Shown here one piece after another: positions 8,141-54,023 of a stretch of 64,000 nucleotides of DNA (positions within the stretch are counted from its first letter, which is position 1; every line of letters starts with the position of its first letter). The notes beneath the pieces are model-generated. The model saw nothing but the letters and a program-made list of their open reading frames with translations. It did no database searches and was not told where the DNA came from. A program made the position numbers and the translations under genes. Source of the DNA: Psammoneis japonica (taxonomy: Eukaryota); NCBI GenBank assembly GCA_008632985.1, contig QPGO01000075.1, forward strand, positions 64,517 through 128,516, in the 5' to 3' direction.

Positions 8141-8281
8141 CTGCTCAACTATCGTAGTGTTGGTGTGAGTCTTAGTAGCGGTAAACATGCATGATCTCGA
8201 CCCTATGTGAAATCCTCTTTATTAAGCTACATCTTCGCTACTAGAGGACGGACTATGGTGAATCTCTACCGGTATCATCCT

Positions 8282-13856: not shown

Positions 13857-14087
13857 CAAAGCATGCGGGCACGTACGTACCATAAGGGGGCAAGCTTTCC
13901 CCCCAGGGGGGTACAAAGTCTAATGCATACTTACTTTACAGTTTTTCACTTTTTCTATGTACAGTTAGTGATAGTTTGCTAAGCGCAATGCGGAAGGGGA
14001 CTCTCTTGAGATTCAAGATCAAAAGATCTCAATTCTCAATTCACATCAACGCGAATCGTCGACGACCGTTCAGACAGCGCAACAACC

Positions 14088-17000: not shown

Positions 17001-17127
17001 GATGCAGCGGACCAGAGGGAACAAAAGCGTTGCTTCTGGCTGAATAACAACAACTCATCGCAGCCGTAGCAAAGTGCCGCCATCTCTGTGATGTTAAACT
17101 GGAGACTCGTCCTCGTCTTCTTGTCAT
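14088..17127 (-). CDS. HAT/TPR-repeat protein (HCF107/Mbb1-like) with a SAP-like motif, 3 exons
   Basis: Repeated W/Y-x-x-(W/L)-G-x-x-E helical repeats; LKVTELREACAERDLKK|SGNKKELQDRI SAP-like motif; SNA-FVP presequence. Confidence 0.8.
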
Positions 17128-17475
17128 TGTGCTGCTCTATGTATTGTGATGGCAGCTGCTGAGAATTTTCATCGCTTTCTCGAAGGGCTTCGCTGTCTGC
17201 TGCTGGCTCAGCTCTGTTGATGGAATGAAGCGATTGCCACGTGAAAGCACGAGGAGCGAATTTCGACATTTTTTTCAGCTGTCCGGAGAGGTGACGTGTC
17301 TTCTTCGATTCTTGTGGTGAATCTACGTACGATAGGAATCAGTAGAAACAGTACGACCTCTGACGCACGACGGGCGGGGGTCGAGGATCACACTTTTTTT
17401 CTTGGTGTACATAACGCTGGAGACTGGAGCATGAACTGGGTAGACCTTGCCTTTAACGCAAAAAGGTTCCGCATA

Positions 17476-17799
17476 ATGTCACTCCACAAGAAAGACACCT
17501 TTGAAATGGACATCTCATTTTCTGCATGTGCCAGTCAAACACTGAGTCGTCACTCAGGGAGTGCAGAGAGAGATGGGTGCTGTCCAAGAAGCGGCGGCAC
17601 ACCTGACACAAGGCTGAAATGGTTTTCTTAACACAGCCACTCACATAAATTGCTCACTTCCACTCACTCTTTTTTGTGCAGTGAGTTTGAGAAAAGCACG
17701 GCTGGCTCTGCCGGCCTGCGGGGCAGCAGGGCTCTTTCCAGAGCCCCAGTGGCATCAAACAATTGCAAAGTCCTTGGGGCCAATGGTGATCAGGCAACG
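17476..17799. other. TpA-poor intergenic patch, probable small repeat or TE relic
   Basis: Only two TA in about 320 bp; TG/CA-rich. Confidence 0.45.
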
Positions 17800-18098
17800 T
17801 AAAATTAACGAGATAAGCACAATTGTCGTGGCTTGTATGTGTCAGCCTTTGGTTTGCGTCACTGCTCCTGCTGCAGTGCGACAGCAAATTTTGGATTTTG
17901 GAGGTGCGTGACGTCACATTTTAGATTTCACCTACATGCATGAAGGTAATATGAAATTTTAGTCCCGTCGAGGTGCGCGATTTATCACGACTGACGACAT
18001 GCGGCCGAGCACAACGCACATCAAAAATTTCGAGAAGTCATCCGAGACACAAAGCCATTGGCGTTTCGTCCCTATTTGATACACTGGCAATCGACACC

Positions 18099-31705: not shown

Positions 31706-32124
31706 GTTGTTGCCAATAAGATGTACACTCTGACATCTGAGCAGTCAAATGAATTTGTTCTTCTGGAGCGAAGAAAGCATTTCCAGGAGTTCCTTACTGT
31801 TCCAATCAATCTTCAATCACTTACGTACTCACTGCTTCCCTCTTCAAGAGAAGAAAACGGGCGTCCGCCAATGAGAATGTAACTGAGTGAGTCAGCATCT
31901 ATCGGGCGGTTGTCAGTTGTCACGGAATCGACAAACTATGGCGCGGAGGACGTTGCGCGCGCGAGCAAACGAGAACGGTTGTACGTATGTCTGTGGAATT
32001 GGGTGTCAACGGAGAGACGAATGACATATTATGCCTTGCGCGCAGGTGCCCCCGCGCGAACGTCGATTTTTTTCTGCAGTCGCTCCGCTCACCGCAACGC
32101 ACAAAAAAGCACAAAAACGACGCC

Positions 32125-34031
32125 ATGACAAACAAACTCAGTCGAATGAGAGCCGGCGGCGGCTCGTCGTACTCCCACGCCCCTCAGGCAATGGCTCCAA
32201 GTCACCATGATGATGTTGTGTCACAAGATTCATCAACAGTGTCTCCAGAGCGGGACCCACCAAGAGAAAGGACCGAAGTTCCAACGCGCGCCGAAACCAA
32301 GCCGACACCACCATCAATCCCTGTACCCGATCATATTCCTGCACTACCTCAGAAGCCACTGCTGCCTCCAAAACAGAGTGAGCTTTACAAGAAGGACTTG
32401 TCGGGTGCTGTCACAAAGCCAAGGGGAAAGAAGGTTGCCCCCCACACAAATGCAGTCGTGCTGGCGAACGAGCGCATTGAAAAATTGGAGAAGACTTTGG
32501 CAGAAAAGCACAACAGCCATGGACACTTGGAGGCAGCAGCGGCCACATCTGTTGATTCCATGTGTGACAATGTGAAGTCCATGCACAGCAGTCTTGTCAA
32601 GATGGCCCAGTCAAAGGCAGCGCTTCAAAACAAGTTCTGCGAAATTCAGAGCGCAAAGAATGCCGCGGTTGAGCAGTCGCGACGAGACAAGAAGGAGCTG
32701 GAGAGCATGGAAAAGGATTTGAAGAGAAAGAACAAGCAAATCAAGTCATTGAAACAGCAGCTTGTGGCAGCCAAAGAATCCAACAGGAAGAACAATGGCT
32801 CCAGCGACAATGCCTCGCAGGACGACGTGCATGAAAAGAAGAAACAAGCGAGCCTGTCACGTGTCGAAGAATTCAGGGTGAAAGAGCAAATCAAAGTTGA
32901 TTCGAAAAAGCAGGAGAAGAAGAATGCTTTAGATGCAAAGAAGGAACGCATGCAATCACTGCATGCTTCCAATGGGCAGTTCGTTGTGAGCATCACATCA
33001 TTGCTTTGTGCGTTCGTGCATCTTTCGTGTCTTTCATTTCTTTTTGATTTCTTTGACTCCACTCACTGGCCTTTTCTCTTCTTCCTCAAAAAGCTTGGTT
33101 CCGGGTGTCCAATGCCACATGGTCAGAGGCAGTCTGATGATTCCCATTGCCAAGAACAAACAAGGCGTCGTGGTCGTTCCCGCAATCGACGCCACAGCAG
33201 CAGTCATCGTGGTCATTCAAGAGGACACGGGAGCAGAGGCCGCAGCCGCTCTTGCCACAGTCCAAGCTCCAGCGATGGTGAGAGTGACTGCAGTGATTCC
33301 CATTGCTGCCACAATCGTTCTCGCTCTCGCCGCCGTCGCAGTCGCTCTCACCACCGTCGCAGCATCTCTCGCCGCGGTGAGAGAGCACTCGCGCCAGTGA
33401 CAGGGAGCACAGTCGCTCTGACAGCATCTCTCGCCGCGGCGAGAGTGCTCGCACCAGTGACAGGGAGCACAGTCGCTCTGACAGTGTCTCTCGCCGCGGT
33501 GAGAGCACTTGCGCCAGTGACAGGGAGCACAGTCACTCTGACAGTGTCTCTCGCCGCGGTGAGAGTGCTCGCGCCAGTGACAGGGAGTGCAGTCACTCTG
33601 ACAGCATCTCTCACCGCAATCAAAGTTGGTCTGGCCGAAGCATGGGTGACCAAGAAGAGAGGCGCTGTGTCACTGCTTCTAGTGGCTACAAAGACGATCG
33701 CCACTGCAACCAAAACCAACCTCCCAGCTCCTCCTCCCATGATCGTTGCAGCTCCCATGGACATGATGGAGGGCATGATGGAGGATGTGAGGAAGAGCCC
33801 GTGCATTCTGATGAAAACAGCATGCAGGAGAAGGAGAACTGCCATCCTGATGGCAAGGAGAATTCCTTTCAAAATGGCGTGGGGCCACATTCCTTCCCTG
33901 GTCCTCCAAAGAATCATCCTGCATTGACTGCACCATCCTTCTCATTGTCCAACGAGTCTGAAAGTTTGCAAGTCTACGAGGATGTTGCTTTGAACAATGC
34001 TTCTGTTGGACGTGAAGGCATGGATGTTTGA
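32125..34031 (+). pseudogene. Transposon-borne accessory ORF: coiled coil plus Arg/Ser-rich repeats; probable intron at about 32986-33093 and a 2-bp frameshift at about 33380
   Basis: Lys/Glu heptad region, then RSRSRRRRSRS and 20-aa repeats that continue in the 33642-34031 frame; Cys/His at positions where Tyr is plausible. Confidence 0.65.
33361..33617 (+). repeat. 60-bp tandem repeat, about 4.3 copies
   Basis: AG(CA/TG)TCTCTCGCCGCGGTGAGAG(CA/TG)CTCGCGCCAGTGACAGGGAG(CA/TG)CAGTCGCTCTGAC. Confidence 0.95.
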
Positions 34032-34084
34032 AGACGAATTTCTGCAGAACTCCTGCGTGAACCACTTGATGCTTTTGAAACCAA

Positions 34085-34459
34085 TCAAGACTCTCTGTGC
34101 TGGTGACCATGTTTGCATCTTGTCACCATTGCACTGTTCAGGTGTGTCAATCTAGATCCAACTCCGTCAGTTGTGGATCTGTCACTAAAAATCGCATCGT
34201 CCCTTGTGCTTTCTCGTGTGACAGTGCTCCGCAAAAAGTTAGTTTCATGTTCAAACACCCGGCACCATGAACAATGCGTGCCTGCTCTGTTCTCGCAAGA
34301 CATTGTTTTAAAGGACAGGAAACTGACAATGCTCACATCTTGCGTATTTTGTGGCTCTCGCCGGGGTAAAAGTCTAACTGCCGCATTTTTCGGATCAACA
34401 ATTTGAATCGAATGGATCCAATCTCGTAACGGCAAAGCAGCATCAATTTTTAGAGACAT
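34085..34459 (-). pseudogene. Possible third small ORF inside the transposon
   Basis: AAAAATG start (MSLKIDAALPLRDWIH...), about 124 codons, no recognised domain. Confidence 0.3.
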
Positions 34460-34767
34460 TTTTTGCGGGAAAACGCGTGTGTTTCCCTGGCATGGCAAGT
34501 CCCGGGTTTTCCACCAGCCGTCAGCCGTTGAACGGAAAGATCCAATGACCATTGATCATTGCTCAGAGGTTTTAGTCAGGATGTCAATGACTGTTCACCC
34601 TTCAAATGACATGTCCAACGGTTGGAGTTACATTGGCGTTTTCAAAAACCAGGGATTCAGTCCCGGGGTTCTGGCGCCCAGACATGCCTCTAGGGCCTGG
34701 AAGTTTCAACTGCATTTCAGTCCATTGTAGGTCATTCTACAGTGGAGCATTCTACAACAGAATGAGC

Positions 34768-35889
34768 TCAAGACACACATCCACATGCTCTGTGCATGCA
34801 GAAGACTTGGTCATGCACAATTTGGGACAACACGTCATGGGCAGCACAGGCGGTGGAATGCTCGGTGTGCGAGCGGAGCCTGCGGATCGGATGGCACTTG
34901 AGCTGTGTCACAAGTTGACACCACACAAGTTCTGCAGGGTTCCATTCAGGGGTCCTCGTTGGAAGAAACAAAACAAATGTGCCACACTCTGTCCACAGCC
35001 ATTCTTCAAGAACCGCATTTTCACCATGCACGTGGCAGGCTGCATTGTCTAGAACAAGGATGTCACCACCTCTGAGAAAGCCCCGATGCACTGCATGCTC
35101 AATCTCCATTGCAAACTGTTCCACATCATTCGGCTCATTGTGGATCCGGCAATGCACTGGGTGGGTCCTTGTGTCGATGCCGCAAAAGCCGATGACGGGG
35201 CATGTGTTGCGAAAATCAGAGGATGTGAAGGATGGCGGGACTTCCCCTGTTAGTGCATTTCGCCTTGTCCTTCGGCAATGCACTTCTGAACCTTTCAGCA
35301 GCTTCTCATCTCCGCATTTGACCCTCCACGGATCAACCTCGGCGACAACCATTGTGAACTCGCGTGCTCGTAGGATGTTGTCGGGTTTGAATTTGTCACA
35401 GGGAATGAGATTTGGCTTGCGAAGTTTCCCGCTGATTGGAAATGCATGATTCCAGAATCTGCTGATGGCAGCATTCGAAACCACTGCTCCTGTGAGGTTG
35501 CACAGATTCTCCCGACAGTTGGACAGCAAGCGACTTGGCTCGTCCAGATGTGGAATCAGAAGGACAAAAGCATCTAGACTGTCAATTGTGTTGACGCCTG
35601 GACCACACATTCGTTTCTGGTGAATCTTTCGCGGGTGAAGCACTTGGCCGCAACAGTCAAGTTCTCGCTCCACTTTGACCACAAATTTGCGGTCAACCCT
35701 GCAAACCCGAGCGACTTCTGTCAGATTCGGCCTGCCACTCTCTGACGTGTCTTGTGGTGATTGATGGACCCTCTGAACTTCGATCTTCTTCTTGATGCCA
35801 CATGCCCTCCCACGTTCATACGTTCCACCATTGTCATTGACAGCAAGTCCGCACTGGGCTGCAGTGGCGCAATCGATGTTGTTGGCCAT
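34768..35889 (-). pseudogene. IS630/Tc1-like DDE transposase (DD38E spacing), frame open but hypermutated
   Basis: GDEK...LVLDNAACH...LFLPTRTPEWNPAELVW; N-terminal HTH-like region; 1 Tyr versus about 23 Cys in 373 aa. Confidence 0.9.
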
Positions 35890-36591
35890 TTTGTTTTTTC
35901 ACGACACAATGTCTCGTCTACTTACAGCCTGCTCAAGCCACACAATGTCCCGTGTAATGCTGAATCATCAGAATAGATGGGTGCGACTGCAAGGGAGGAA
36001 CATGGAGATGCGACAAAGAATGAATTGCACAGAAAAGTGCAGCATTTCGGTGACATCCAAGCACAACAAATCCTGGTAGATTTCTCGAGTGTCTCTTCAA
36101 ATCTTCACAAGACCTTCAAGTGATATAATCTTAGGGACTAGTATAGCGTTTCCGACTGGTCAAACTATCACGATAATCGTCCAATTACTTACAATCAACG
36201 ACAAGATGCCATCCGGAGTCGTTTTTCGGGTTTTTTTTAGCGAGCGCGTGTCGGAGGGAGTCGAAAAAATTCTTGTGTGTCCGCGCGGGGGCACCTGCGC
36301 GCAAGGCATAATACGGTGCTTTACCGTAAAAGTCTCGTACGTAGAAAGATTACCATGTCTTCAACAATGTACGTGGTGGACATCGACAGCTCACAAAATT
36401 GCCGCCAACACGCATTTCATCGAATCCAATTTGGAAATTCAGCACAGGCTCTGCGTGTGTAGTTCGAACGTCTTTACGTTGTGTCGTGGTCTCTATCGTC
36501 AACTAGTGTCATCTACCATACGTGTGAAGAGATCATATACGAAGAAAGAAGCAATTGTTGCCTTAGCGTTGAAAAAATCGAACAAGAAAAC

Positions 36592-38875: not shown

Positions 38876-39249
38876 CGTCTTACAGCTCTGTTCCCGAAAT
38901 CACAATGTAACAACGTTTCCCAATTGTACATAAAAGCAAACAAATCCCTCGAGAGACAACTAAGACGAATGCCAATGAGTGTTGAGGAGCGGATGCCGAT
39001 TATCGTCATGAGCACCTCCTGATCGCTTTGTGCTTTGTGCTTGTGATTTGCGTGATGGGTGATGGGTGATGGCGCTGGATGCAGCGCTAAGGTGAATTCT
39101 GGAGCTCGGACCTCGTCATCGAAGCTGCAGTTTCCTACACGACGTAGAGCGTACGTAGGGCTAGGAATTGGCAATAATTTTGAAGGTAGCAGGTTCTCAC
39201 GCATCTTTTACATGCGAAATCATGGTGTTAATTCTACAAAGCTGCACAA

Positions 39250-39900
39250 CCCATCAATTCCTCGCAATCGATGTCACTGTACCACAAGCTCCCCCGCCTC
39301 CTGCACCTGGTTTGCCCGTCCCTGAAAACCCACTCAACAAGGCTCACCTCAGCAGCACTCGGGACAAGCTCCTCGGCCGCTCTGCATCCTCTTCTCATGG
39401 TTCTGACGTCATTGACGCCATTGACCAAGCAGGCCTCTTCCTCCTCCCTTCTTTTACCTTCGACCACCTCGGAGGCATTGGGTGTCACTTCCATGTCTTC
39501 TTCTTTGGCGCCTCCACCACCACCTCCTCCTCCGTCCCACCCCTTCCTCCCAAACCACCCTGGTCAAGCCCATCCTCCTTGCCCAACTCACAAGCATCCT
39601 TCTCCGCCTTCACCAACTCCCTTTTGGCTCCTTCCAACCTCCTCGCCCAATCCAACGCGGCCTGGAAACAACTTTCACCCAACCACTTTGGCTCCTCCTG
39701 TCATGCAGCAACACCCCCACTCTGGGCCTCCCAAATCCTCAGTCTCAATTTCGGCTTTGCTCTTTCCAACCGCCTTTCTACATTTTAAGCTTTCCTCCTC
39801 CGCCACCCCACTGTCACCAACTCCTCCTCACAACCATCTGTCGCACCCTCGGCCAACCCTTTTTCTCTCCCTCGCCAAGCGCGACCACCTGTTTCCCCAC
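39250..39900 (+). mobile_element. 3' fragment of an RLE-type (CRE/R2-like) non-LTR retrotransposon
   Basis: FLAIDVTV...RDKL...FLLPSFTFDHLGGIG resembles the restriction-like endonuclease C-terminus; strongly C-rich sense strand; no RT upstream, so 5'-truncated. Confidence 0.6.
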
Positions 39901-41095
39901 CACGACAACTGCCAACCCCACGGACATCACAGTTGGTGAAAACAAAGTGACAGTGATTGAGAAATTTAGCAATGGTCATCACACAAACAAAATCTCTCAG
40001 AAATTCTTTCGTGCTCATTTTTTGCTCACAACTCGTCATCTCACATGATGTGTTTGTTGTTTGCCAAGCAGGGATGCAGGCGATCGCCCAGGATGGCTCG
40101 CCCTTCTTATGGACAATGGAAAGTCTTCTCTTGTTTGGCAATTGCACAACTCATTTAGCTTGATGGCGTGTTGTCTCCAGGTGGCACAGGTGTTGCCAGT
40201 CAAGTCCGGAGGTCGGGGCAAATCAAGTGCGTGTCTCCGGCCCAGAGCCCACATCATTCCTGTGTCTTTGACCGCAGGAAGTTGCCTGTTTGCTTGACCC
40301 GTCAGGTCACGGCTGTTGAAATGGACAGCAGCGTTCATCTGCAAAGCAGCAAAAGCTTGCCAAGCAGATCATGCCATTGACGGAATGTGGGGTTTGGGGT
40401 TCCGTCGCATCAGCGACATGATGCGGCAAGTCTTCACTCACAGGGGAGTGTTGATTTGGCACGCGGTTGACTCGCAAGTCATCTTGTTGTCTCTGCAGCA
40501 CATCCCCCCTTTTGCATTTTTTAGAGTGATGCTTCACTCTGAAGATGCACAAAAGCTTGAGATCCATCTTTTTTGATGGCGCTCTTGAGGCATCATTGCC
40601 CTGCATGACCAATTTCCACATCAACTTTTGACATTTCTGTGTTTCAAATTTTCGAAACGCGCTTTGAACCTTTGCAACAGATGTGGAAATGCCAAAAGCA
40701 AGACATGACAATCTTCGTTGGCATGCCATTCATTCTGCACATGCGTCAATGGACTGCGATGGCAGTGCTTGCAATGTCGTTGCACAGCTCCTTGCCTGGG
40801 GTCCATGATGGGGTGTTCGTTGCGGTGTGAAGGCTTGTCATCGACATGTGGTGGACTGTTCGGTGCTGCTTGCCTGCAGCACTGCATGGGCAAGCTGTTC
40901 CTCCATGATTGCACTTGCAAGATCACGGTGGACTGACAAAGTGCAAATTCGGACAACTGGGTGCTGTCCGAACAACAGCTGTTGGCACCTGCTCTTGAGG
41001 AAAAGACAAAAGCAATTAATCGAACCCCACAGACATCAAAATGAATCTAATTCCAGGTTTCCATGCCAACGGTTCCAAGTCTGATGAGCAATGCA

Positions 41096-44070
41096 TCATG
41101 ATTGCTGTGCATGTGCCAGCTTTTCTCCATTTTTCTGGGTGTCATCTCCAGTTGACAAGGCACTGGGAGTGGTGACCATTGGCAAGTTTTTGCCGCTTCC
41201 TTCATTGCCCCCGTTTCCTTCCTCCTCTGTGCCTTCTCCATCATCAATCTCCACATGGAAATCACTGTTCAGTGCAACACCCAGTTCAACATCCCCCACC
41301 TTGTGAAGCAAAGGTTGGCAGTTGTCTGGGTGGACCTCGTTCTTTGCCTTTAAAGTCGGCTGCAGGCACTGATTGGTGATGAACAAAAAATCATCCTGGC
41401 CTTCAGCTTGATTCTTGAGATTGACCTGCAACAAGCACTCCTCTCCTGCAGGCAGAAATTCTGCAACCTGCTTGTGTCTCTGCAAATGTTAAAAAGAACG
41501 TTTGCATCAACAGCGGAAGCACGAGGGGGGCAGCCCATCCCTTTCTTTTGAGCCCAAGTGCACCCAGGAGGGTCAGCTGTCCAATGATGGTTTGTGCTTT
41601 GACATTCCCATGAAAGTGATTCAATTCTGCTGCCCATGCCTGGCTTTGCTGGGCAGTTGCAAAAGCACTTGTGCCTCCAACACAAGCACAAGATTCCAAA
41701 GCAAAACATGAGAAACCAGTTAAAGAGAGGCACCATTGACAAACAGACAAAGAACACCTTTGTGTGGAGTGTGGAGTGCGTTTGCAGAGGCAACTTCGGC
41801 ATGTGGAAGCCTGAGAGGGTTGCACAGTGGACACAAAAAGCCATGCGACCTGCGAGAAGACTCCTCCTTGGCAAGGTCAGGGCCATGACAGCATTGCAGG
41901 GCTGCCTTGAAGAGTGGCAAGAAACAAAGCATTTCGACAGTCAAGCCAACAAAGGTCTTTGCCAACAAAAGCTGCACAAAATGGGTTGACTGCCCCGGAA
42001 GGGACGTCGCCAAGAAATCAATTTGCTTGCAGGGTCACAGACAATGTTTTGAACTTCAGCCCAAATCCCTCCTGATGCAGCAGACACAAAGAAAGTTTGA
42101 ATGATCAAAAAAGAACAAGTTTTGGGAGCTGTTGGGCAACCTGTGCAGCCTGTGAAAGCGGAAATTCCACAAGCACAATCCACTCAAGCAGGGTGGGCAA
42201 TGAAAAATTGAGTGGAACGAGAAGGAGCGGAGCAAGACTTTTGAAGAAGGTGGAGAGCCATGGTTGCTTCTCCAATGAATTGGCAAGCCATGACATCTCC
42301 TGTGTGAGAGATTCAATGTTGCTCAAGGATGAAACAAATGCTGTTGGAATTGTCTGTGATGATTGAAGGGCTGCTGTCAGTGCAATGGCAAGGAGCCCGC
42401 CAGTCTGCAACTTGTGAGAGCTCCTTCCATCGTTTCTGTGAAACACATTTTCTGGATCGGGTGCATCGTGCGCATCCATGCTGAATGGTGTTGAATGATG
42501 AATCCCCTGCAATGCAGATTGCTTGGAATGAAGGTTCTTGAAACAGACAAAACCGGCATCCCGTGGCGACCCTTCCTCTTCTCCCCACACCAATGCCAAC
42601 ACGCTTGTTGCGCTGTTGTAATTCCCTCTTTTGCCTTCTTTGCAAGTTTCTTGCTCAACGTTGCACCCAGCTTGGCACCCTTCTGAAGAGAGTGGGTGAC
42701 GGATTCAGAAAAATGCGACACTGATGTCTGCAGCTTGTCCACAACGTTCCTCTTCAAGCCGCCCAATCTAAAAACTGGAGGTGTTGCTTTCTTTTCCACT
42801 GCAGCCTTCTCTGATTCTGCTGTTTTGTGAGCATCCACAACATTTTCTCCCTTTTTGACCTTTGGCAAGCTTTCTGTCTCAGCGCCTTTGCTTGTTGTTT
42901 CCTTCTCCTCTTGATCATGCTCCAATTGTAAAGTTTCTTGAGTGTCCATGAAAATGTCTTCCTGTGCTGACACCTGGTCTGTTGCATCTGGGTTGGTCTG
43001 GTGCACGCCCAATCCTGTTGATGACTCGTCTGCTTCTGCAATGTTGCAGCCATTCACGAGCACCCTTTTTGAGTGCTGCATCATGTTGAAGCTTCAAACA
43101 CTCAATGACACAGACGTCTTCTGCAATTCACTGGTTTGAGTGGGTGATTCCTCCACCGCTGCAGAATGGCCTCCTTTGTTTGCTTTCGTCACACCCTTGG
43201 TTTGTTCAATGTTGGTCAAATGCTCAAGTTTTCTGATGAGAGCCTGCCATTTGTTGACCTTGGCTTCCAACTTTGGAATTCTTAGAGCCACATGCATATC
43301 TGGCACACCATCTGTGAATGACAGCAAAAAGCATTTTAACACAGCATCCGATCAATGGCACAATCTGGAATGCCTGAATGCACATGGCACAATTTCGTGG
43401 CTCACGCTCCAACTGAAAGGCATGTCAGTGGGTCAAAAACCATTTGAACTCTTGCAAGACAAAGCACATTGTAAATCCAAAGACAATTTGGGTCGACAGT
43501 GAACAGCAGAAATGAGATGATCCGATCCTGGAGGAACATGTGCAGAGGATGATCTCACAACTGAGTCAAGCTGCACATTTTCTGGAGTGGCACGGCATGC
43601 CACAGATTGGAAAGAGCCAGATGGAATTGAACATTCCCGCCAAGAAAATCTTCGTCCAAAAGATGAACATGCAATCCAAACATGCCGAGTCCATGCCGCA
43701 TTGCTCCCAAATCTCCGTTGAGCTTGCTCGTTGAACCTTCCAAACCACGACACAAAACCACAGGTTGACGCTTCCACAATTTCAACACGGCCATTCTTTG
43801 GGACAAAGATTTGTTAGACAGCATTGAGCCAAGCAATCTCTGCATCCTTGGCTTCTGCGAAGGAGTCCCAGCTGAAGGTTCCTGGTTCCGCATCTTCCCA
43901 CCCCCATCCGCACCTGGACAGCGACTTGCAAGAACAAAGATTTTTTTACACCACCTGTGTTGACACACCATGACAAAGAGAAATGCCTCATGAGCAAATG
44001 CGAAGCCTCCAAACAACCTTTCCAGGCAAGCTGTGCTCACTGTCCGCTGATGGCAGACAGTGACCAGCAA
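41096..44070 (-). pseudogene. Decayed OSCA/CSC1/TMEM63 (ERD4-like) channel gene
   Basis: Collinear fragments across frames: EQCGMDS..GMFNSIWLFPI; VALRIPKLEAKV..RKLEH; AGFVCFKNL..QSALQ..APDPENVF; TIPTAFVSSLSNIESL; ATSLPGQSTHFVQ; GPDLAKEE; PLFNWFLMFCF..RHK; QCLQPTL. Confidence 0.85.
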
Positions 44071-46059
44071 AAGCCATCATCATCTTCTGTCGGCAACGCA
44101 CCTTGATCTCAAACAGTCGCTGCAGTTGCATGAATGCCACTGTGGCACAAAGCAAACAGAGTGCGTGGCTGCAGAAAAAAGGCCTGCACACAACCGTCCT
44201 TTGGCCCCAGCACACCTCTTGCACAGGACTGAAGCTTTGATTGTTCTGGAAAAGGGCCTTTCACTGGAAAATGGAGTTTTGAACCATCTTACATTGCAAG
44301 ATGAGGGACAAAACTGCAGCAAGATTGTGTGTGCTCTTGAATGTCTTGGGCACACAAATCTGGACACAACACCCAACATGCAATCGCTGCATGCTTTTCT
44401 TGCATTCCTGCAAGGTGCGCTGGAGAAGACCCCCCACCAAGGCTTCCAACTGTCCAAACTCAAGGGCGGCCCTCTTGACAAGAGCTCTCTGGTCCTCAGC
44501 ATGTCATGTGACAAACCTTGCATGTTGAGTTTCTCCCAATTAAAAAAAGTCTGTCGATCCCTGCGGAACCACTTGATGACAGTGTTGCGCGTTTGTGGGG
44601 AGCTCACTTGAGAAGAGTCCAATGAACTGTGGAACATCACTCAAAGAGTTGCAATGATGCACAGCCAGGTGTTTGATCATGACCAACGGCGCCACTGGGG
44701 CAGACAAGACAGCATCCATCAGAGCTGTGCACTGGTGCATCATGGTGATGGCAGCACGAATGCGCCGATGCCGCGTGCTGCAAAAACGATGATGACATCA
44801 CGATTTTTTGGTGGGAAAGTTGGCCTCAAAGCAAGTGCGCTGCATGGCACATCTTTCAGGAGGACAAAATCTTGCAGCCAAGAATCATGGCATGGCAATG
44901 AGCCATCAAAGCTGCTGCGGCAAAAAGGTGGCATGCGCTGCTGCCAATGGAGAACACTGTTGGTGACATGCTCTGGCACCAGGGAGATGAGAGTCACATT
45001 GCTGTGCCTGCTGCTCAGGAGAGATCATGCACTGCTGATGCCACATGCTGCCACAGGCAGAGCAAATGGCAGCCATTGTGCCAGATCTTGCCAAAATGAG
45101 AGGAGCAAAGAAGCAATGTGGCAGTTGAGGCCAGCAGACATTGGTTGGCAGGTTTCTTCCATGTGAGACTCTTGTTCTTGAAGAGGGGTTTGACAAGGAC
45201 TTTTTCTGCTGCCCCTTGCTGCCTGCTGCCAGGATGACAGGTTGCACCATTTTGGTCTTCTCAACTTGGAGGAGATGGGAGAAGCTCAATGCTGTGTGTC
45301 CCCATCTCATCAAGAAACCAAACTCACCAAGAAGCACTCTTAGGGGGGGGAAGGGGGGGGGGGGGGCAGATGAGCTGAGGACAGTGGTTGTTGTGAGCAC
45401 AAATCCTCACCATGCTTTGCCATTGCAAGACTCTCATGAAGGCAAAGTGTGTTGCTTTTGCTGTTGGACCTGAGCCCATCCACTCCACTGTCTGTGTTGG
45501 ACCTGAGTCCCCTCCCATGCATGTGTGCTGGCTTTCCTTTGTCTGCCATGTGAAAAGGGTGTTTCTTGACCCAGATGTTGTTGAGTCATGCGCCAGCAGT
45601 CATGCCATGAAAAATGGCATCAAAATGCCCACAAGCACATGTTTGTCATGACCCTTCAAACAATGGCAACATTTGACAGAAGCAAGCAGATGCTGACCCA
45701 ACTCACCTCTTGTTGCACTGGGTGATCATGCCCATCTTGGTCACATTTCATTTGCCTGTTGACTTTGTTTGATGACTCCACTCTCTGTGGCAGCTGGGGG
45801 TCACATGCAAGCACAGCCCATGCTCATCACCTTGGGCAGGCCAAGTGATGAATCCTGCCAAAGTCAGAGCCTTTGGTCAGTGCTGCTGGAAATTGTCTCG
45901 CTGTTTGTTTCAATGAACTTCCCAAGCTGTTTGACAAGGCCAAGTTTGAGAAATGTTTTTGTGTTGTCACACAAACCTGCATGGGCAACAAGTGTTCACC
46001 CTGTTCCTGGAAAGACAGTGAGACAAACACAACAGCCATTTGCGCCAAATTGAGAAATC

Positions 46060-46735
46060 AAATCTTCCAAGTCTCTTTCCCCAGACACCAGGCAACACAA
46101 CCCTGCAACTGTCCGCTGCAGCTCTCAAAGTGTTGCCTGGCACTCATCAAAATTCCCAGAGCCTTTTCAGCCTGCAGGTGGGGCCGGTTTTGGCTGGTGG
46201 GCTCCACTTTGATCTCCAGCACCACAGGTGGCATCAAATTTCAAGTCCCCTCCCACAGACAAGAAGCAGGCTACAAAGTGGCTGTTGGGACAAGAGACCA
46301 ACCCTGGAGCTGTCCCCCACCACAGTTCTCAAGTTTTGCATGTGCTGGCACCCAACAAATGCCCCAAGAGCCTTCAGCCTGCATTTGTTGCTTTGGCTTT
46401 TGGGTCCCAACCAATTTGACCTCCAGCACCACAGCACCAGCACCAAATTTTAAGTGTCTCCTCTCACAAAGACAAGCAGGAGGTGTGGCAAGCGGCTGTG
46501 CAGACAAGAGATGATGTTAAATCTGCAGCTGTCTGTTGCAGCTCTTGAAGTGTTGTGCCTGGCACTTGCCCTCTGATGTCCCAAAAGGTTTCAGCCTGCA
46601 GTTGTTTGGCTGGTGGGTCTTGCTCTGACCTCTGGCACCACAACCAACATCAAATTTCAAGTTTCTTCCCACAGACAAAGCAGCAGGCAGCAAAGTGCTG
46701 GCTGCAAGGGCAAGAGATTGACCACGCAGCTGCCT
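46060..46735 (+). repeat. Diverged tandem repeat of about 205-210 bp (about 3 copies; a further related copy at about 47200)
   Basis: CAAATTT(C/T)AAGT at about 46235, 46444 and 46651, each followed by ...GCAGG...GGCTG...CAAGAGA; related CAAATTTCAGGT...GTGGCTGCATGGGCAAGAGA at about 47207. Confidence 0.75.
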
Positions 46736-46762
46736 GACATGGCGCTTCTTGAAGCATCTCCT

Positions 46763-47022
46763 GGCCTGTTCAGGCTCCAGGTGATCTGCTTTTCATCACG
46801 CGAGAGGCCGATTTTCTGCGCAGTTTAGCGCAATTGACTCCTTCAATTTTGATCGTTTTGAAAATCGAAAGGTGAGTGTACACCCGAAAACACATGCAAA
46901 GTGTGCACTTGCCCTTCGATTTGGCAAAAAACGGATTTGGAAAAAGCCAATTGCGCCCAATGCACAAATTTCCAGATGATGGGAATCGAACCCGCGCGGA
47001 GCACCTGGAGCTGGAACAGGCC
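46763..47022. repeat. Imperfect inverted repeat of about 260 bp, CpG-retaining
   Basis: GGCCTGTTCAGGCTCCAGGTG...GCGCAATTG...AAATCGAAAGGTGAGTGTACAC pairs with GTGTGCACTTGCCCTTCGATTT...CAATTGCGC...CACCTGGAGCTGGAACAGGCC. Confidence 0.8.
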
Positions 47023-47969
47023 TCCTGGCACCCACCAAAGAGCACCCTCAGCCAGAGCTTTTCTGCAGCTGTTGCTCCAACACAGCTCTGAAACAAGCAC
47101 TGCCTGGCACCCACCACCACAAATGCACCAAGTGCCTTCAGTTTCCCACACAGTTGTTTGGCTTGTGCACATGGCCCATTTTGACCTGCAACAGCTTTGC
47201 CTGCACCAAATTTCAGGTCTTTTTTTCTCGTGGTTCAAGTGGGCAACAAGTGGCTGCATGGGCAAGAGAGCAGCAACCCTGCAGCCAGTTGTCAACTTTT
47301 GCCTGGTGCCCACCAAATCACCCTTGGAGACTTCAACAAAAAGCTGGGCCATTTTTGCCACACTGTGTTTGCACAGCCAATTTTGTCATGTGCAGGCTTT
47401 GCGACATTTCTCACAAAGGATGGCACAACTGACATGGCGGGACATCTGAAAATGACTCTGGATCTTTCTCTGTCAGTGTCCCCAGCCCTGTGGATGCTGC
47501 GCCCAGTCATGTGGCACTCTGGCGACCTCACCTCCCACTCTCCTGCACTCCCCAATGATTCAAAATGCTCTTGTCTCCACCCAAAAGTGGGGACTTTGAC
47601 TTCCTGGTTTGATGATCTTAAATTGCGTGTGCTGTTGAGGCACCCACAATTGCAGATTGTTTGATTTCTGTTCAAGCTGTGATGGGTGGCAGGCAGCGGC
47701 AGCTCGGATGATGTTTTGATGCCACACTTGGCTGGATGGACTGTGATGGTTGACGGCACACCATTGGCAGATTGCGCTGCAAATGACACCATGTTGCCAG
47801 TGCTCCAGTGCTGGCTAGATTGGGGTGCTTTGCATGAATTGTTTTGACCTCTGCAACAAATGTCTGGCTTCTCAGCTGCATGTCTGTCTGGTGCTTCTGT
47901 TGTTGTTCATTGGGTCAAAGGTCACCAAGATTGCACAGCACCCCCCAAATCTCTTTCTCTTCAAGCTGA

Positions 47970-50690
47970 GCCAAGTGCTCATGATGATGAGTTTGCTGCT
48001 GATGGATGCCAAGGCCAAGGTCTGTTTTCTGGCAACACCTCTCTGGCTCCTTGTGAGCCACACTGCACTGCAAACTTGGTCATTTGGGGCTGCTCTGTTG
48101 CTTCCACATGCAAGTCACTCCCGCAACATGAAGCTTCCATTCCAGCTCTTTGACTGCAGCACATGATGGGCAACAAGTGTGGCTGGTCAGATGAGCTGCT
48201 CACCTTGATTGATTGGACAATGCACTCCAAGTTGATGTCTTGTGATGTTTGCCACAAAGTCAGCACAGTCAAGCTGGTGTGTGAGGCTTGCCACCCACGA
48301 ACAAGACAGCCAATTGCTGCAACCCACCACTCACCCAGCCAGATTGTTGTACCTGTTGTGAGCATCCCATGGAGCACTGGGATTGTGCTCTTCATTGTCC
48401 TCACAACAAAGCCTGGCACAGGAAGTTTGTTCTCCAAGGAACACACAAAAAGTGCAGCAATGTTGATGTCTCCTCACCCTCCAAGCATGACTTGCTCCAA
48501 CAGTCTGCTCTGTCCTGATGAGATTCTTTTGACAACATGAAAGCGGTTGCCAAGACAGTGTGAGTTGGTGGCATCTTTTTCTTGATGGCCGCTTTTCTTC
48601 TGTGGTGCAAAACTTGGGCATCACACTTGCTGATCAGTGGATTGCATTGCAACCAGAATTCAGGGGAGTCAATGATTGGGTTCGGCAGCAACAACCTGTG
48701 CTTTTGTTTGGTCTCAGCAGCAGGAGCTGGGGGGCTCAGTGCATGGCAATTGCTCTCATGGCCACAACTTTGTCAACCAGGAAGTCAGCTCAGTGACACA
48801 AAGGATGATGAGGTGCACTTGTTTGGCTCATTTGAGAAACATCTTGCTCACTCCATGCACACATGGACTGTGCAGCTGGTTGGCTGCAGTGAAACCCATG
48901 TTCAACAGGTTGACTCAATGTTTTGCCACTGGGCAAATGGAGCCACATCAGAGGCTGCAACATGGGGATTTTTGCTTTCCTCCTTCACAAGCTTTGCATC
49001 TTTTGTTGTCACAAATGTTTGCAAATGAAAAGATCAAAATCCCAGTGACAGCAGTTGATGCAATGTGTTTGCATTTGACATTTCCATTTCAGTCTCAATT
49101 GACTTTTCTGAAAACTGATTGATGCAAACATGTTTGTTTTTGACAATGATTTTAATTGTCACCAAGTTTTTGTGGTGCACCTTTTTGCTTTTCATTGGAT
49201 TTTTGCAGTTGAACTTGGTTTTGACTTTGTTTCTCCCACTCATGTGCCTGTGTTGTTGGCATGTGCAGCACGTGCTTCCCTGCGCTGCGCTGCACCTTGT
49301 TGCCCCTGCAAGCTCAAGTGGCCACCACACACCCCAATGCATGTTTCCCTCTTGCTTTCTCAGTGTTGCGTGCCACATCCTCCCGTTGTGTGATTTTTTC
49401 AGCATTTTGCGATTAAATTTTTACACATTTCATGACAGCACACCCTCTCCCCAAATGCCAAAAGAAGAGCATGTGCTGCGGTTGTGATTCACATGCATTT
49501 GACATGATGCCACCAACCGACAACAGGCCATGGTGGCGAATGACTTTGCCCTGTCAGCTGACAAGGTCAGCCCCAATTCCTTGTTTGTCCTCTTTGATGA
49601 CAATGTTGATTTTGACAACATTGAACATTTTGCTTGTGGTTTTGGCATGGAGTTGTTTGGACAAAAGTTCAAAAGCACAGCAGCTGCAACATGTGCCTCC
49701 TCCAAAAAGCAGCTTGTGGAGCAAACAAATTGGGCACCATCTCTGGAATTCCTTGCACTTCCCTTCCTTTGCTGACAGAAAAACAAGCTGAGGAAATGCT
49801 TGGGCAGATGCAGGGTGCTGCAAGCCTGTCCAAAGGAAGACACCAATGTAAAAAATGAGGCAAAAAGAATGAGGAAGCTGAGCCAATTGAAGAACCATTC
49901 ACGCCAACTTGGGAGGGCAAGACTGTGGAAACCACTGTGGTGGGTGAAAAACTGACCAACAAGGAAGCGCATGTGTGGTTTTGCAACAATGTGCTGAAAT
50001 TCTCCAAGAGCACTGCAGCATGGAGCACAGCCAACTGCAGCAAGCAACAAAGATCCAAGCTGTTGGCACCAGAAAACTGCTGGAAAACAATGAATCACAA
50101 GGCAGCAAATGAGCAAAAGTTTTGACAGGGAGATGAAGACAAGGACAAGAAGGGAGAGAGCTGGAAACCACCAGCGCCAATGCACACAAACCCTGAGCAT
50201 CTTGTGATTCATGGGGAGATGCAGGAACAGAGTGACTCAATGAGCTGCAGCTCATGCAGATGAGCTTGCCGGTGGATGCCAAGGTCTGTTTTCTTCAAGC
50301 GACACCTCTTTGGCTCCCTTGTGAGCCACACTGCTCCATGAACTTGGTCATTTGGTGTGCTGCTCTGTTGCTTCCACATGCAAGTCAGTCCTGCAACATG
50401 AAAGAGCTTCCAGCGCCCAGCTCTTTGACTGCACATGTGATGGGTCACAAGCATGTGGCTGCTGGCTGGGTGAACCACTCACCTCATTTGATTGGACAGT
50501 GCACTCCAAGTTGTTGACATGCACAGCTGTGACACCCTGCTCACCCAGCCAGATTGTTGCACCCATTGTGAGCATTGCATGGAGGGCTGGGGCTGTGTTC
50601 TTCATTGTCCTCACACAACAAAGCTCGGCACACACAGGAAGTTTGTTCTCCAATGGCTGCACAAGAAGTGTGACGACATTGCTGTCAATG
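47970..50690 (+). repeat. Dispersed direct repeat pair (about 47970-48470 and 50240-50690)
   Basis: Shared CCAAGGTCTGTTTTCT, TTGTGAGCCACACTGC, GCTGCTCTGTTGCTTCCACATGCAAGTCA, TCACCCAGCCAGATTGTTG and ACAGGAAGTTTGTTCTCCAA. Confidence 0.85.
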
Positions 50691-51191
50691 CACCAAATGC
50701 AGGATTGAATTGGGTGGAGGATGGATGGGCAAGCAAAGGAGGGATGATGACAGATGACGATGACGTGATTGTTTCGTTTGTGTTCTTTCATTGCCAGCTG
50801 CTTTGTTCGAACGTGTTGCTGGCCTGGCATCACAGTCAGGTGGCAGCACCAATCTTGGCCAGTTGCCATGGAGTTGCAGGATGGAAGTACAGCAGCACTT
50901 TAAAAACACAGATGTTAGGTTTTGTTCTGTGTTTGCCCACCTTTCCTCTCAACTGATATTGTGTCTGTGTCTCCGAATTGTTTTAGATTCCACGGCCAGA
51001 TTGCATTGGGCGGAAGGACGGACGGGCAAAGTACAGAAGGTATGATGACAGACGACGATGACGTGATTATTTTTTGATTTGTGTTCTTTCATTTTTTTTG
51101 CCGTGTCGCCTTGAGTGTGAAACGTGTGTACCACAGGGCTTACTGTTGTTTCTGTTGTTCCTGCTGTAGTTCTTATCAGCACAAACGAGAT

Positions 51192-54023
51192 ATGCCTTCT
51201 TTAGGATATGCAGAAGCCTTGCGGCGAGGGTCCCCACAAAATTCTGAACGAACAAAAAAAGCGCAAAAGCAAGTGCCGCAAGTACCTGCCCCCGAAAAAA
51301 CACAGCCGCCAAGGAATAACAAGAATCCGTGGAAAAGCGCATCTGGTCTACCGCCGAGTTCAGCATGGGGATCCATAAATACTTCTGCTTCGAAAAGAAT
51401 AAAAAGCGAGCAAGGAGAACCGATGGCTCCAGAGAGGATGAATCATCGTATTGCTCCCAAACAGGCTTCACCGTGGGCCCGTAATCCGTTGAATACAAAC
51501 ACCGTGGGTTCAGCCACTGTCTCTCCCTCACCGAAAGTCAGCTCAAGGAAACCAATCAACGGCCCTCTTGCTGTAGCCCCTGCAAAGAAATTGAACGAGA
51601 AACGAGAACAAAAGAAGGGAGATGTTGACTTTCGATCTTCAAACGACTTTCCAGCCTTGTCACCCGCTGCGCCTGTTGTTGCGGCGTCGCCTGCGGTCAA
51701 ACGAAAGCAACCACAACCTCAGCACGATTCAAGCAGAGCAAAAAAGACCCCGCCTCAGAAAAAGAAGAAAGCAAGCAGCCAGTCTAGTACTTTTTCCAAA
51801 GAGCCTGTCAGTAAGAAGGCGTCGCTACCAAAGAAAAAGGTAGCTCTCAAACAGGAACAGTCGCTATCTGACCACCACTCGAGCAATATGCTTACTTTTC
51901 CAAACAAGATATTATCACCACCGTCGCAAGATCAACGTCAAGGTGGAGGAACAGAGCTATTGTCGTTGGTACAGAAACAAGGAGGAGCACTTTCCTCGGG
52001 CCGACAACGACTCCATCCTCGAAAGAAGATATTCACCTCGCTCAAGAAAAAGGTGCTACAAGAACGATTGGAAATATGGAAGAAACAACAGGAACAAGCC
52101 GAACAGGAAAAGAACAAGTCCGTCTCTATCGAGGAAGGAAATGCATCGAATGAAATGAGTTTAGATTCTTCACCCGCTTGTTGTCACGCTGTGTCGTTGA
52201 ACAGGTTCTGTACATTTGAGGAAATACAAGATGAGGACGAGCATGCGGAACTATTGGATAACTTGACGAGCATGGCAGCAAAAATTGGATCAACCACAGA
52301 CATCTTTGTAGAAGCTGTTGGTCATGACGCTGTCGCTTTTGTTGTTTTCGAGAATATTCCCGACGCGCAGGCAGCCAAGGCGTGCTGGGACGGGTTTGTG
52401 CTCGGCGGAGAACGGCTACGAACCACCATACTGAATGTGTCACTCCAGTCGACAGAGACGGATCTAGCGGCTACCTCATGGCGTCCAGCACTTCTTCATG
52501 CATATCAGGAATCTATCCAGCAGCATGAACGACCCTCTCCTGAGCCGCATGCTACAGAGCTCATGACAAAGAACGGGGTGCGAGTTCTGCTTGGCAATTT
52601 ACTCACCAAGGATGATTTTGAGGATGAAGATAGTTTGGAAGAAAGCTTGGGAGATATTCGCACGATGATCGAGGGCTACGGAGAAATTGTAAATATCGAA
52701 GCTCGAAGAGAAGACTGTACCGCGATCCTTACGTTCAGCACCCTCGAAAATGCTACGGGAGCCGCCAAGCATTTTGCTGGAAAAGTGATTGGCGGACAGC
52801 ATATTGTAGCTCGACTGTTAGATACCAAGTTGGAGGATGGGGGAGTAGAGCAGACAAGGAGACCGAGCACTACTATTGCGCTTGACAATTTTTTGACCGA
52901 AGATGATCTGGAGGACGAGGATAATTTGGAGGAATGCTTGGAAGACCTTCGAACGATGGCAGAGGCTGTCGGCACAATCAGCGACGTACAAATCTCCAAG
53001 GATTATCATGGGACTGTTCTCATAGCATATAGTGACAGGACTAGTGCAGAAAGGGCACTACGACATTTTTCTGGCAGGGTCATCGGTGGTCAAATTGTGT
53101 CGGCTTCCATGCACAACGAAAACGTTGGTGTAGAAGTGCAAGATGACGCGGCGTCGTGGATCGTATTGACAAATGTGCTAACCGAAGAAGACTTAGATGA
53201 CAAAGATTGTCTTGAAGAAACCAAGGATGACATTGCCGAGCTTGCCGGACGGTACGGGCAAGTCCTTTCTGTAATTGTAGATACTGACATTGGTGGAGGG
53301 CGTATTAGAATAGAGTACGGTGGGAGCCAGAGCGTCGCCTCAGTTGCAGCTAGCAAGCTTGACGGGGTTACGGTAGGGGGGCAAAAGATATTGGCCACCG
53401 TGTTGTCAACAAACGACACCGAAAAAGAAAGCATGAAGCACGAGCCCATCCCAACACCTATAACGACAGCGAAACAACATGGCACGGGTTCCGACAACAA
53501 AGATGCGCCTCATCCTCAGTTATTTTCGGGCGACAAACTAATTTCTGAGCGATTCGCAGAATGCAAACGTGCGCCAAAGATCTCCAACGTTGCACCCGGT
53601 CCACGCCATTATGCTGCTTTTGTTGATGACGAAAGAGTCAAGCCTCTTCTCATCGAGATGCTGGGAGAACTTATGAGACTACAGAACCGTGCTATCGAGG
53701 ACAAAAATGCGAAGGCGAGAAGGCGTATTGTCATGGGCCTAAGGGAGGTAGCACGTGGCATCAGATCACACAAGGTGAAAATGGTGGTAATGGCCAACAA
53801 TCTTGATCATTACGGTGCCATTGATGAAAAACTGCAAGGAATTCTGGACCTCGCTAGCCAAGAAGACGTTCCCGTCTTTTTTGAGTTCAGCAAGAGACTA
53901 CTGGGAAAGGCAGTTGGCAAGAACATCAAGGTTGCTGTCGTTGGCATCCAGAATGCGGACGGAGCACACCAGCAATTCAAGAAGCTACTTCAGATCAAAT
54001 CTAAGTCAGGATACGGGGCATAA
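51192..54023 (+). CDS. SECISBP2: SECIS-binding protein 2-like (K-rich SID motif plus L7Ae domain) with four inserted UHM/RRM-like repeats
   Basis: KKIFTSLKKKVLQER; KARRRIVMGLREVARGIRSHKVKMVVMANN...SKRLLGKAVGKNIKVAVVGI. Confidence 0.85.
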   Translation: MPSLGYAEALRRGSPQNSERTKKAQKQVPQVPAPEKTQPPRNNKNPWKSASGLPPSSAWGSINTSASKRIKSEQGEPMAPERMNHRIAPKQASPWARNPLNTNTVGSATVSPSPKVSSRKPINGPLAVAPAKKLNEKREQKKGDVDFRSSNDFPALSPAAPVVAASPAVKRKQPQPQHDSSRAKKTPPQKKKKASSQSSTFSKEPVSKKASLPKKKVALKQEQSLSDHHSSNMLTFPNKILSPPSQDQRQGGGTELLSLVQKQGGALSSGRQRLHPRKKIFTSLKKKVLQERLEIWKKQQEQAEQEKNKSVSIEEGNASNEMSLDSSPACCHAVSLNRFCTFEEIQDEDEHAELLDNLTSMAAKIGSTTDIFVEAVGHDAVAFVVFENIPDAQAAKACWDGFVLGGERLRTTILNVSLQSTETDLAATSWRPALLHAYQESIQQHERPSPEPHATELMTKNGVRVLLGNLLTKDDFEDEDSLEESLGDIRTMIEGYGEIVNIEARREDCTAILTFSTLENATGAAKHFAGKVIGGQHIVARLLDTKLEDGGVEQTRRPSTTIALDNFLTEDDLEDEDNLEECLEDLRTMAEAVGTISDVQISKDYHGTVLIAYSDRTSAERALRHFSGRVIGGQIVSASMHNENVGVEVQDDAASWIVLTNVLTEEDLDDKDCLEETKDDIAELAGRYGQVLSVIVDTDIGGGRIRIEYGGSQSVASVAASKLDGVTVGGQKILATVLSTNDTEKESMKHEPIPTPITTAKQHGTGSDNKDAPHPQLFSGDKLISERFAECKRAPKISNVAPGPRHYAAFVDDERVKPLLIEMLGELMRLQNRAIEDKNAKARRRIVMGLREVARGIRSHKVKMVVMANNLDHYGAIDEKLQGILDLASQEDVPVFFEFSKRLLGKAVGKNIKVAVVGIQNADGAHQQFKKLLQIKSKSGYGA

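Follow-up and report, generated by a model that had tools for sequence, protein, structure and literature searches.

Mutation directed at repeated DNA takes the form of repeat-induced point mutation (RIP) in fungi, and elsewhere that of the passive decay of methylated CpG; both processes alter cytosines only. RIP, which is found in Neurospora and other fungi and depends on RID/DNMT4, changes C:G to T:A exclusively, mainly at CpA, and creates TpA and AT-rich DNA. Decay of methylated CpG is a feature of the silenced transposons of vertebrates and plants, and a CpG-context 'RIP-like' hypermutation is said to occur in basidiomycetes. In this study we analysed a 64-kb stretch of DNA from Psammoneis japonica (positions 64,517 to 128,516 of contig QPGO01000075.1, referred to as the window), in which three blocks are stripped not only of CpG but also of TpA. 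A 95-bp duplicate straddles the edge of block 3, with its inner copy stripped and its outer copy, which lies ahead of an SBP2-like gene, retaining CG and TA. The TpA-erasing process that these sequences point to is a larger result than the duplicate itself, and it was not seen at any of 39 related transposon loci.

Stripped blocks and a duplicate across one edge

The window is a compact eukaryotic stretch with long intron-poor open reading frames (ORFs) on both strands. Its background has observed/expected (o/e) ratios of 0.59 for TpA, 0.97 for CpG and 1.14 for TpG/CpA at a GC content of 0.48, against 0.05-0.13 for TpA, 0.13-0.70 for CpG and 1.5-1.9 for TpG/CpA, at a GC content of 0.49-0.52, in the three blocks. 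Loss of TpA is more complete than loss of CpG in every block, and the two losses begin and end together in each of the three blocks, as they do inside the transposon that constitutes block 2. Since values are ordinary both in background DNA outside ORFs (CpG o/e 0.96, TpA 0.70) and at the codon 3-1 boundaries of four genes (CpG 0.79-0.96), the process is not genome-wide.

The block edges are sharp. At the right edge of block 3 a TpA-free run of 1,039 bp (chance ~9e-19) ends at 50888, and between 50,500 and 51,000 CG and TA go from making up 0.04 of the pyrimidine-purine (YR) steps to making up 0.33; this edge falls between 50792 and 50999. The right edge of block 1, at ~2600-2612, switches within ~15 bp and lies ~190 bp ahead of the next long ORF.

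A preliminary description of this DNA had reported a duplicate at the edge of block 3, just upstream of the SBP2 ATG, and had listed for its inner copy four CG>TG changes, AGTA>AGCA, TTAT>TTGT and the loss of all three TpA, one of them by a transversion, with the outer copy retaining all three. The duplicate is real. Self-comparison of the window by blastn paired the two copies at 82.1% over 95 columns (E 5.1e-17), a gap-free repeat search found a 44-nt core at 86% between them, and the window contains exactly two occurrences of a 25-nt core with a single degenerate letter, which matched in none of 100 shuffles. The list of changes was reproduced exactly, including the transversion, by a pairwise MAFFT alignment in which 78 of the 90 aligned positions agree, 12 carry substitutions and 5 further columns are gapped (Table 1). 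There are two copies in all, no third being found in the window or beside the other in-block duplicate. The flanks of the copies showed no similarity on either side, with local alignment scores within the shuffle range. An origin of the pair from a decayed 298-bp tandem unit was considered and found no support, the flank alignments being at shuffle level; the only tandem array near the pair is a 20-nt GATGAC run.

Densities of CpG and TpA in the outer copy are those of ordinary background DNA. The inner copy retains two of the six CpG and none of the three TpA, which agrees with an overall retention in the block of 0.26 for CpG and 0.08 for TpA; the third CpG of the inner copy is private to it and lies, at 50775, in an indel-ridden run of T. 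Outside CG and TA the copies have diverged by ~6%, while 67% of the CpG and 100% of the TpA have changed, which by a coarse estimate from one pair would put the CpG and TpA rates at roughly tens of times the background. Within the pair the differences split 7 versus 1 (binomial p 0.07), or 6-7 versus 0 when the CpG in the indel zone is disregarded (p 0.03-0.016); by itself this suggests a direction while falling short of deciding it.

The arrangement was also observed in a sequencing run. One Logan contig of 10,677 nt (run X1) extends from the end of the block across both copies and the gene, has a single-copy word depth of 58.9, and differs from the window over 49426-54000 by three other letters and five gaps. 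Run X1 is possibly the window's own source sample, so that an assembler artefact is ruled out but the material is not independent.

The outer copy holds an 11-codon upstream ORF (51042-51077) with two ATGs at its start, 115 nt ahead of the SBP2-like ATG. The corresponding start in the inner copy leads into a long stop-free frame, because TAA and TAG are absent from the block.

Table 1. Features of the window discussed in the text, with positions counted from its first nucleotide
Feature	Position	Strand	Remarks
Inner copy of 95-bp duplicate	50703..50792		~100 bp within block 3 edge; 3 CpG, 0 TpA; 'after' state
Outer copy of 95-bp duplicate	50999..51093		99-193 bp upstream of SBP2-like ATG; 6 CpG, 3 TpA; 'before' state
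CG>TG (inner/outer)	50715 T/51011 C; 50722 T/51019 C; 50726 T/51023 C; 50755 T/51053 C		MAFFT
AGTA>AGCA (inner/outer)	50734 C/51032 T		MAFFT
TTAT>TTGT (inner/outer)	50771 G/51069 A		MAFFT
TA>GA, transversion T>G (inner/outer)	50743 G/51041 T		MAFFT
Spacer/transition zone of block 3 edge	50793..50998		Between the two 95-bp copies
Block 1	1..2600		Cut by window start; ~507-bp tandem repeat and flanks; CpG o/e 0.13, TpA 0.05
Block 2	32029..36311		Tc1-like DNA transposon, interior stripped
Block 3	39300..50887		~11.5 kb; TpA o/e 0.05-0.07, CpG 0.25-0.53, TpG/CpA 1.6-1.8, GC 0.49
In-block duplicate, copy 1	47977..48454		Pairs with 50250-50670 at 78-82%; stripped
In-block duplicate, copy 2	50250..50670		Stripped; ends 33 bp before inner 95-bp copy
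CSC1/OSCA-type channel gene relic	41321..43781	-	PHM7_cyt + RSN1_7TM; frameshifted; in block 3
Transposase, Tc1-like (DDE_3)	34771..35898	-	376 codons; DDE_3 E 7.8e-9
SBP2-like gene (L7Ae + RRM)	51192..54023	+	Intact, 943 codons; ordinary CpG and TpA; directly outside block 3

Direction and order of the changes

Since the pair cannot root itself, polarity was assessed by four independent tests within the window. In the test on paralogues, four repeat pairs inside the blocks were compared with four outside them. Among the in-block pairs, TG in one copy stood opposite CA in the other at 21 of 59 double-difference dinucleotides and at 21 of 35 double-transition differences (expected share 0.23, p 3.5e-6); among the out-of-block pairs the count was 0 of 6. 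TG opposite CA represents two independent resolutions of one CG or TA and therefore requires an ancestor with CG or TA, and it indicates that both copies of the in-block paralogues were mutated after duplication.

The relic of a channel gene in block 3 was compared with 150 homologues and keeps 114 of 173 conserved columns. None of five conserved Tyr residues is kept (four are Cys and one is Gln; Fisher p 0.004), conserved Arg residues have become Cys, Cys, Trp, Gln and a stop, and among 40 single-step changes there are 8 CG>TG/CA and 7 TA>TG/CA. A word-index protein search with a fragment of the relic gave no matches and a full HMMER search gave 418 relatives, so transposons and pseudogenes of this kind would be hidden from word-based searches. 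A paralogue of the channel gene, diverged by ~10%, appears to be present in the same sample, on contigs of run X1 (1,021 nt, 101 differences) and run X2 (1,923 nt, ~200 differences).

The transposase of block 2, compared with 79 homologues, keeps 130 of 153 conserved columns. Conserved Arg is kept at 10 of 11 columns and conserved Tyr at one of six (two His, two Cys and one Phe at the others; p 0.0003), and the 16 single-step changes include seven TA>TG/CA (four to CA, three to TG) and three at CG. All of the 39 metagenomic loci examined that encode this transposase family have a TpA o/e of 0.39-0.84, versus 0.08 here. Four of these 39 loci (L002, L016, L019 and L034) have a CpG o/e of 0.38-0.49 and a TpG o/e of 1.29-1.38 with normal TpA (0.57-0.64), a composition that evidently represents ordinary methyl-CpG decay without the TpA process.

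Comparison with other genomic copies of the repeat at 39-40.7 kb gave the same polarity: of the 40 variant places listed, ~24 read TG or CA in the window but CG or TA in these copies, and 4 show the reverse. Since the paralogue, pseudogene, transposase and repeat-copy tests agree, the inner copy is on this evidence the 'after' state, and the direction of change that from CG/TA to TG/CA. The preliminary description was thus right about the direction, but not in reading it directly from the pair, which has a 7:1 asymmetry and no outgroup; it is the other tests in the window that establish it. It had also named an outgroup in which TG/CA is ancestral as the observation that would overturn it, and wherever an outgroup exists, TG/CA was not found to be ancestral.

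The log-retention ratio of TpA to CpG was 4.6 in block 2, 5.9 in the transposase frame and 3.5 in the left part of block 3, and fell to 1.2-1.8 where TpA had bottomed out. Judged by these ratios, TpA was lost ahead of CpG, and ~4-6 times faster in the young element. Both transitions occur in palindromic contexts and are symmetric on the two strands, as the counts of TA>CA (4) and TA>TG (3) in the transposase illustrate. For the TpA step, this symmetry argues against transcription-coupled deamination of a single strand, and favours a mark or an enzyme that reads the palindromic step on duplex DNA. Polarity, the two contexts, their co-extension, strand symmetry and sharp edges are all observed in this window. 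GC-biased gene conversion was considered and ruled out, since AA/TT is raised, GC is flat and CpG is lost.

Domains, neighbours and competing explanations

The repeats of the window provide a three-way contrast between place and pairing. Both copies are stripped in the four in-block pairs, only the inner copy is stripped in the straddling pair, and CG and TA are kept in both copies of the four out-of-block pairs. The last group includes a 276-bp tandem of 97.8% identity, with 14 and 13 CpG and 18 and 18 TpA in its copies, and a CpG-rich inverted pair of ~600 bp (22474-23081/23927-24543, 77% identity) with 48 and 48 CpG, which is not stripped. The relic of an ordinary cellular gene is affected as the repeats are. 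These observations are consistent with a process that operates only within a domain and stops over roughly the width of one nucleosome. The preliminary description had held that targeting is positional and not pairing-based as in RIP. The sharp spatial limit that it implied is borne out by the three-way contrast, but the contrast with RIP was over-read: a 95-bp repeat is shorter than what RIP is known to detect, so RIP would not be expected to mutate the outer copy either, and there are repeats in every block.

Tandem repeats at 61676-62155 and 62676-63101, with periods of 69 bp and 213 bp and 88-91% identity, likewise have ordinary CG and TA; they are found at the window's right end, within long ORFs rich in purines. 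A scaffold gap of 467 N lies at ~24.9-25.4 kb, just to the right of the ~600-bp inverted pair.

Block 3 contains high-copy repeats, tandem repeats, internal tandem and dispersed duplications, the pseudogene and long single-copy parts. Word depth in its repeats is 1,500-17,900, versus 58.9 for the gene, and yet much of the block is single-copy at an identity of at least 85% (word depth 56-94) and is the most depleted part of it. In the repeats at 39017-40567 and 46772-47288 the summed word depth reaches 5,147 and 17,884, respectively, and the ORFs found there had no Pfam matches. At 12 listed places in the single-copy parts of the block (41385-49902) every X1 contig differs from the window; nine of these differences are CpG<->TpG/CpA, in both directions, and none is at TpA. 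They resemble allelic or strain variants, and hint that CpG decay in the block may be ongoing. Contigs of run X2 cover 51143-54000 and none covers 44187-50907, which we do not read as evidence of silence.

Surviving CpG in block 3 is clustered within ~200 bp, with no clear nucleosome-like period. The strand skew of TG versus CA swings locally to -0.49 (39501-40000) and bears no consistent relation to the strands of the ORFs, and a search of the window against Rfam gave no matches. Blocks 1 and 3 together contain, in 14 kb, 101 stop-free frames of at least 80 codons. These frames, 80-270 codons long, overlap on both strands because TAA and TAG are gone from the blocks, and they contain much Cys, His, Trp and Gln but almost no Tyr.

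With its DDE transposase, inverted repeats and TA duplication, block 2 is by its sequence a Tc1/mariner DNA transposon. The terminal inverted repeats are 33 nt long (32029-32061 and 36279-36311; 34 of 35 positions identical by blastn) and have a TA target-site duplication, with TA on both flanks. They are CpG-rich, with six intact CpG each. The ends of the element are spared (TpA o/e 0.32 and 0.58, CpG 1.04 and 1.12), and its interior has a TpA o/e of 0.04-0.08 with a mild reduction of CpG (~0.7). Loss of TpA is heaviest over two ORF-bearing segments, between which a 620-bp stretch (34,151-34,770) is partly spared, with a TpA o/e of 0.34. The 79 homologues of the transposase reach 63% identity; one is named a Tc1-like transposase at its source, and three come under source names from Skeletonema, Cyclotella and Thalassiosira. 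The transposase frame has 0.3% Tyr and 11.2% Cys+His, for which the family medians are 3.6 and 4.4. A second long frame runs on the + strand at ~32125-33927 and had no Pfam match; it carries a tandem repeat of ~120 bp at 33365-33617.

The gene beside the outer copy has an L7Ae domain and SBP2-type relatives, and is accordingly predicted to encode an SBP2 protein. Nine relatives carry PF01248, seven of which also carry PF00076, and one is named at its source as a selenocysteine insertion sequence-binding protein 2. Among Atlas clusters, the one closest to the gene is the 'SECIS binding protein 2 family', and the nearest ones occur most often in Bacillariophyta. Identity to the best SBP2 relatives is no more than 39-45%, too low to supply a sister locus for rooting the pair; an exact-pattern scan of metagenome contigs for an outgroup of the pair likewise gave no matches.

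We consider it probable that repeat-associated domains in this genome have undergone two context-specific transitions, with the decay following duplication and the domain edge remaining fixed. A compact diatom genome would then carry three such domains, in which CpG>TpG/CpA and TpA>TpG/CpA have gone nearly to completion on both strands. The 95-bp sequence would have been duplicated before most of the decay. One copy, within the largest domain and ~100 bp from its right edge, would have lost four of six CpG and three of three TpA, and the other, 110-200 bp past the edge and ahead of an intact gene, would have kept its CG and TA. The process would be confined to the domain, with an edge ~100-200 bp wide that was stable in place throughout the decay.

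As to mechanism, the domains may be silenced repeat chromatin with methylated cytosines; methylation of transposon CpG is described as established in diatoms in the parts of PMC9998398 used here. The loss of CpG would then reflect deamination of 5-methylcytosine, and that of TpA a further process directed to these domains, whether carried out by an enzyme or set off by a base modification. One candidate for the TpA step is modification of thymine in TpA, by analogy with the 5-hydroxymethyluracil (5hmU) of dinoflagellate transposons, and another is deamination of adenine in 5'-TA. We tentatively propose that a second genome-defence mutator, or a mutagenic mark, might read TpA in transposon interiors and repeat domains alongside CpG methylation.

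Several points weigh against the explanation by domains. The private CpG of the inner copy at 50775 runs the other way, and the pair is a single straddling one of 95 bp, without an outgroup of its own and with a p of 0.03-0.07 when taken alone. The basis of the whole argument is one 64-kb window, this one pair and a read set that is possibly non-independent, as X1 may come from the same sample as the window. All three blocks hold repeats or a transposon, so that repeat identity and position are inseparable here; the bin that includes the inner copy (50391-50907) has a word depth of 4-5 times single-copy, and a process that is nucleated by repeat homology or by small RNA and then spreads over a short distance may be compatible with the data. 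The weaker loss in the 620-bp stretch of the transposon is unexpected under a plain 'whole-element domain'. The chemistry suggested for the TpA step is conjectural throughout.

A RIP-like trigger could act, through pairing or small RNA, on long repeats and leak a short way into their neighbours, in which case the inner copy was hit as it adjoins repeats, and the outer copy escaped as it lies beyond the leak and is too short. This would agree with the presence of repeats in each block (the 507-bp tandem, the Tc1-like element, and the high-depth repeats and internal duplications of block 3), with the diverged paralogue of the pseudogene in the same sample, with mutation of both copies of the in-block duplicates and with the raised word depth around the inner copy. 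DNMT4 enzymes, kin of the fungal RID and with a function given as unknown, are moreover reported in 31 of 60 diatom species (PMC9998398, in the parts used here). We nevertheless regard such a trigger as unlikely: the out-of-block 276-bp tandem and ~600-bp inverted pair are intact, the terminal repeats and ends of the transposon are spared even though they are common to every copy, and depletion within block 3 is strongest in parts that are single-copy at 85% identity or above. The mutations are also of a different type from those of RIP, with TpA destroyed and not made, A:T>G:C included and GC unchanged. That the outer copy lies so close to the ATG of an intact gene leaves room for another view, in which mutation pressure was equal on both copies and purifying selection on the SBP2-like promoter preserved CG and TA in the outer one. 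It is very improbable, as the values of the non-coding background and of silent codon boundaries given above reveal no general pressure to be resisted, and selection would not yield edges of 15-200 bp beside unrelated genes at blocks 1 and 3.

A reversed polarity, with TG/CA as the ancestral state and CG and TA as later gains of the outer copy, or an accident of sampling, might be entertained for a pair that has no outgroup and a 7:1 count at p 0.07. The outgroup-rooted changes in block 3 and in the transposon run from CG/TA to TG/CA, however, and the occurrence of TG and CA at the same sites of in-block paralogues needs an ancestor with CG or TA, so that this is extremely improbable. It is likewise extremely improbable that the pattern is an artefact or foreign DNA, whether through miscalled modified bases, assembly error or import of DNA with a native CG/TA-poor composition. 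The assembly is a draft and has the 467-N gap, but the block, its edge and both copies recur at single-copy depth on Logan contigs, which may themselves derive from the sample that was assembled, and the changes appear as amino-acid replacements and frameshifts relative to the 150 and 79 homologues. Sister copies in the same genome retain CG and TA, and the ends of the transposon are of host type and flanked by a duplicated TA target.

Significance and comparison with known systems

If the proposed TpA mutator is real, it has removed more than 90% of TpA by A:T>G:C transitions, turned Tyr codons into Cys and His codons, and erased TAA and TAG. TpA erasure by A:T>G:C would be a new mutational signature, and probably reflect a new enzyme activity or DNA mark, in ecologically important algae. 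As GC would be constant under the process, GC-based scans for RIP or isochores would miss the stripped domains, and the vanished TAA and TAG would leave long false reading frames, a trap for gene prediction. The straddling pair would in that case be a natural before/after control and a source of per-site calibration. It would also serve as a marker of the edge, placing it within 200 bp of an active promoter, with the process stopping ~100-300 bp from a working gene.

Joint loss of CpG and TpA to TpG/CpA in transposons or repeats was not found described in the full-text literature, with subscription journals and supplements outside the coverage, and the absence of a TpA-erasing process from print is therefore provisional. 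The footprints of APOBEC and ADAR enzymes are similar in that mobile elements are hypermutated by C>T and A>G changes, and ADAR prefers a 5' U/T neighbour. Those footprints arise on RNA or reverse-transcription intermediates of retroelements and are strand-biased, whereas the process described here has affected a cut-and-paste DNA transposon, a pseudogene and non-coding DNA, symmetrically on the two strands.

The resemblance to RIP lies in the saturation of repeats and transposons with transitions, the blocks of skewed dinucleotides, the mutation of both in-block duplicates and the destruction of reading frames. In contrast to the C:G>T:A-only rule of RIP, A:T>G:C is as common here, and Tyr codons (TAY) have changed to Cys or His at 4/5 conserved columns of the channel relic and 4/6 of the transposase. 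Where RIP gains TpA and AT-richness, the blocks have a TpA o/e of 0.05-0.13 versus 0.59 and a GC content of 0.49-0.52 versus 0.48. The cytosine context is CpG and not the CpA preferred by RIP, and a further apparent difference is the sparing of the transposon ends and of the 276-bp and ~600-bp duplicates outside the blocks.

In dinoflagellates, 5hmU produced by TET/JBP enzymes is enriched in internal repeat regions and silences them, and older work quoted in the same paper indicates that T is replaced preferentially in TA and TC (PMC11572971, in the parts used here). Dinoflagellates, which belong to a related supergroup, offer in this a precedent for a mark that is linked to TpA and directed to the interior of transposons. 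In those parts of PMC11572971 no mutational decay of TpA is reported, in which the dinoflagellate system differs from the present one. Unlike the preference of 5hmU for TC, TpC/GpA in this window is without clear depletion (GA/TC o/e 0.84-1.17). The host also differs from dinoflagellates in its compact genome, its genes on both strands and its diatom-type relatives.

With the decay of methylated CpG the blocks share a loss of CpG with a matching excess of TpG/CpA, confined to repeats, and the change of Arg codons from CGN to TGN or CAN at conserved columns. They differ from it in the fate of TpA, which methyl-CpG decay leaves untouched and which here appears to have been lost first, ~4-6 times faster than CpG in the young element.

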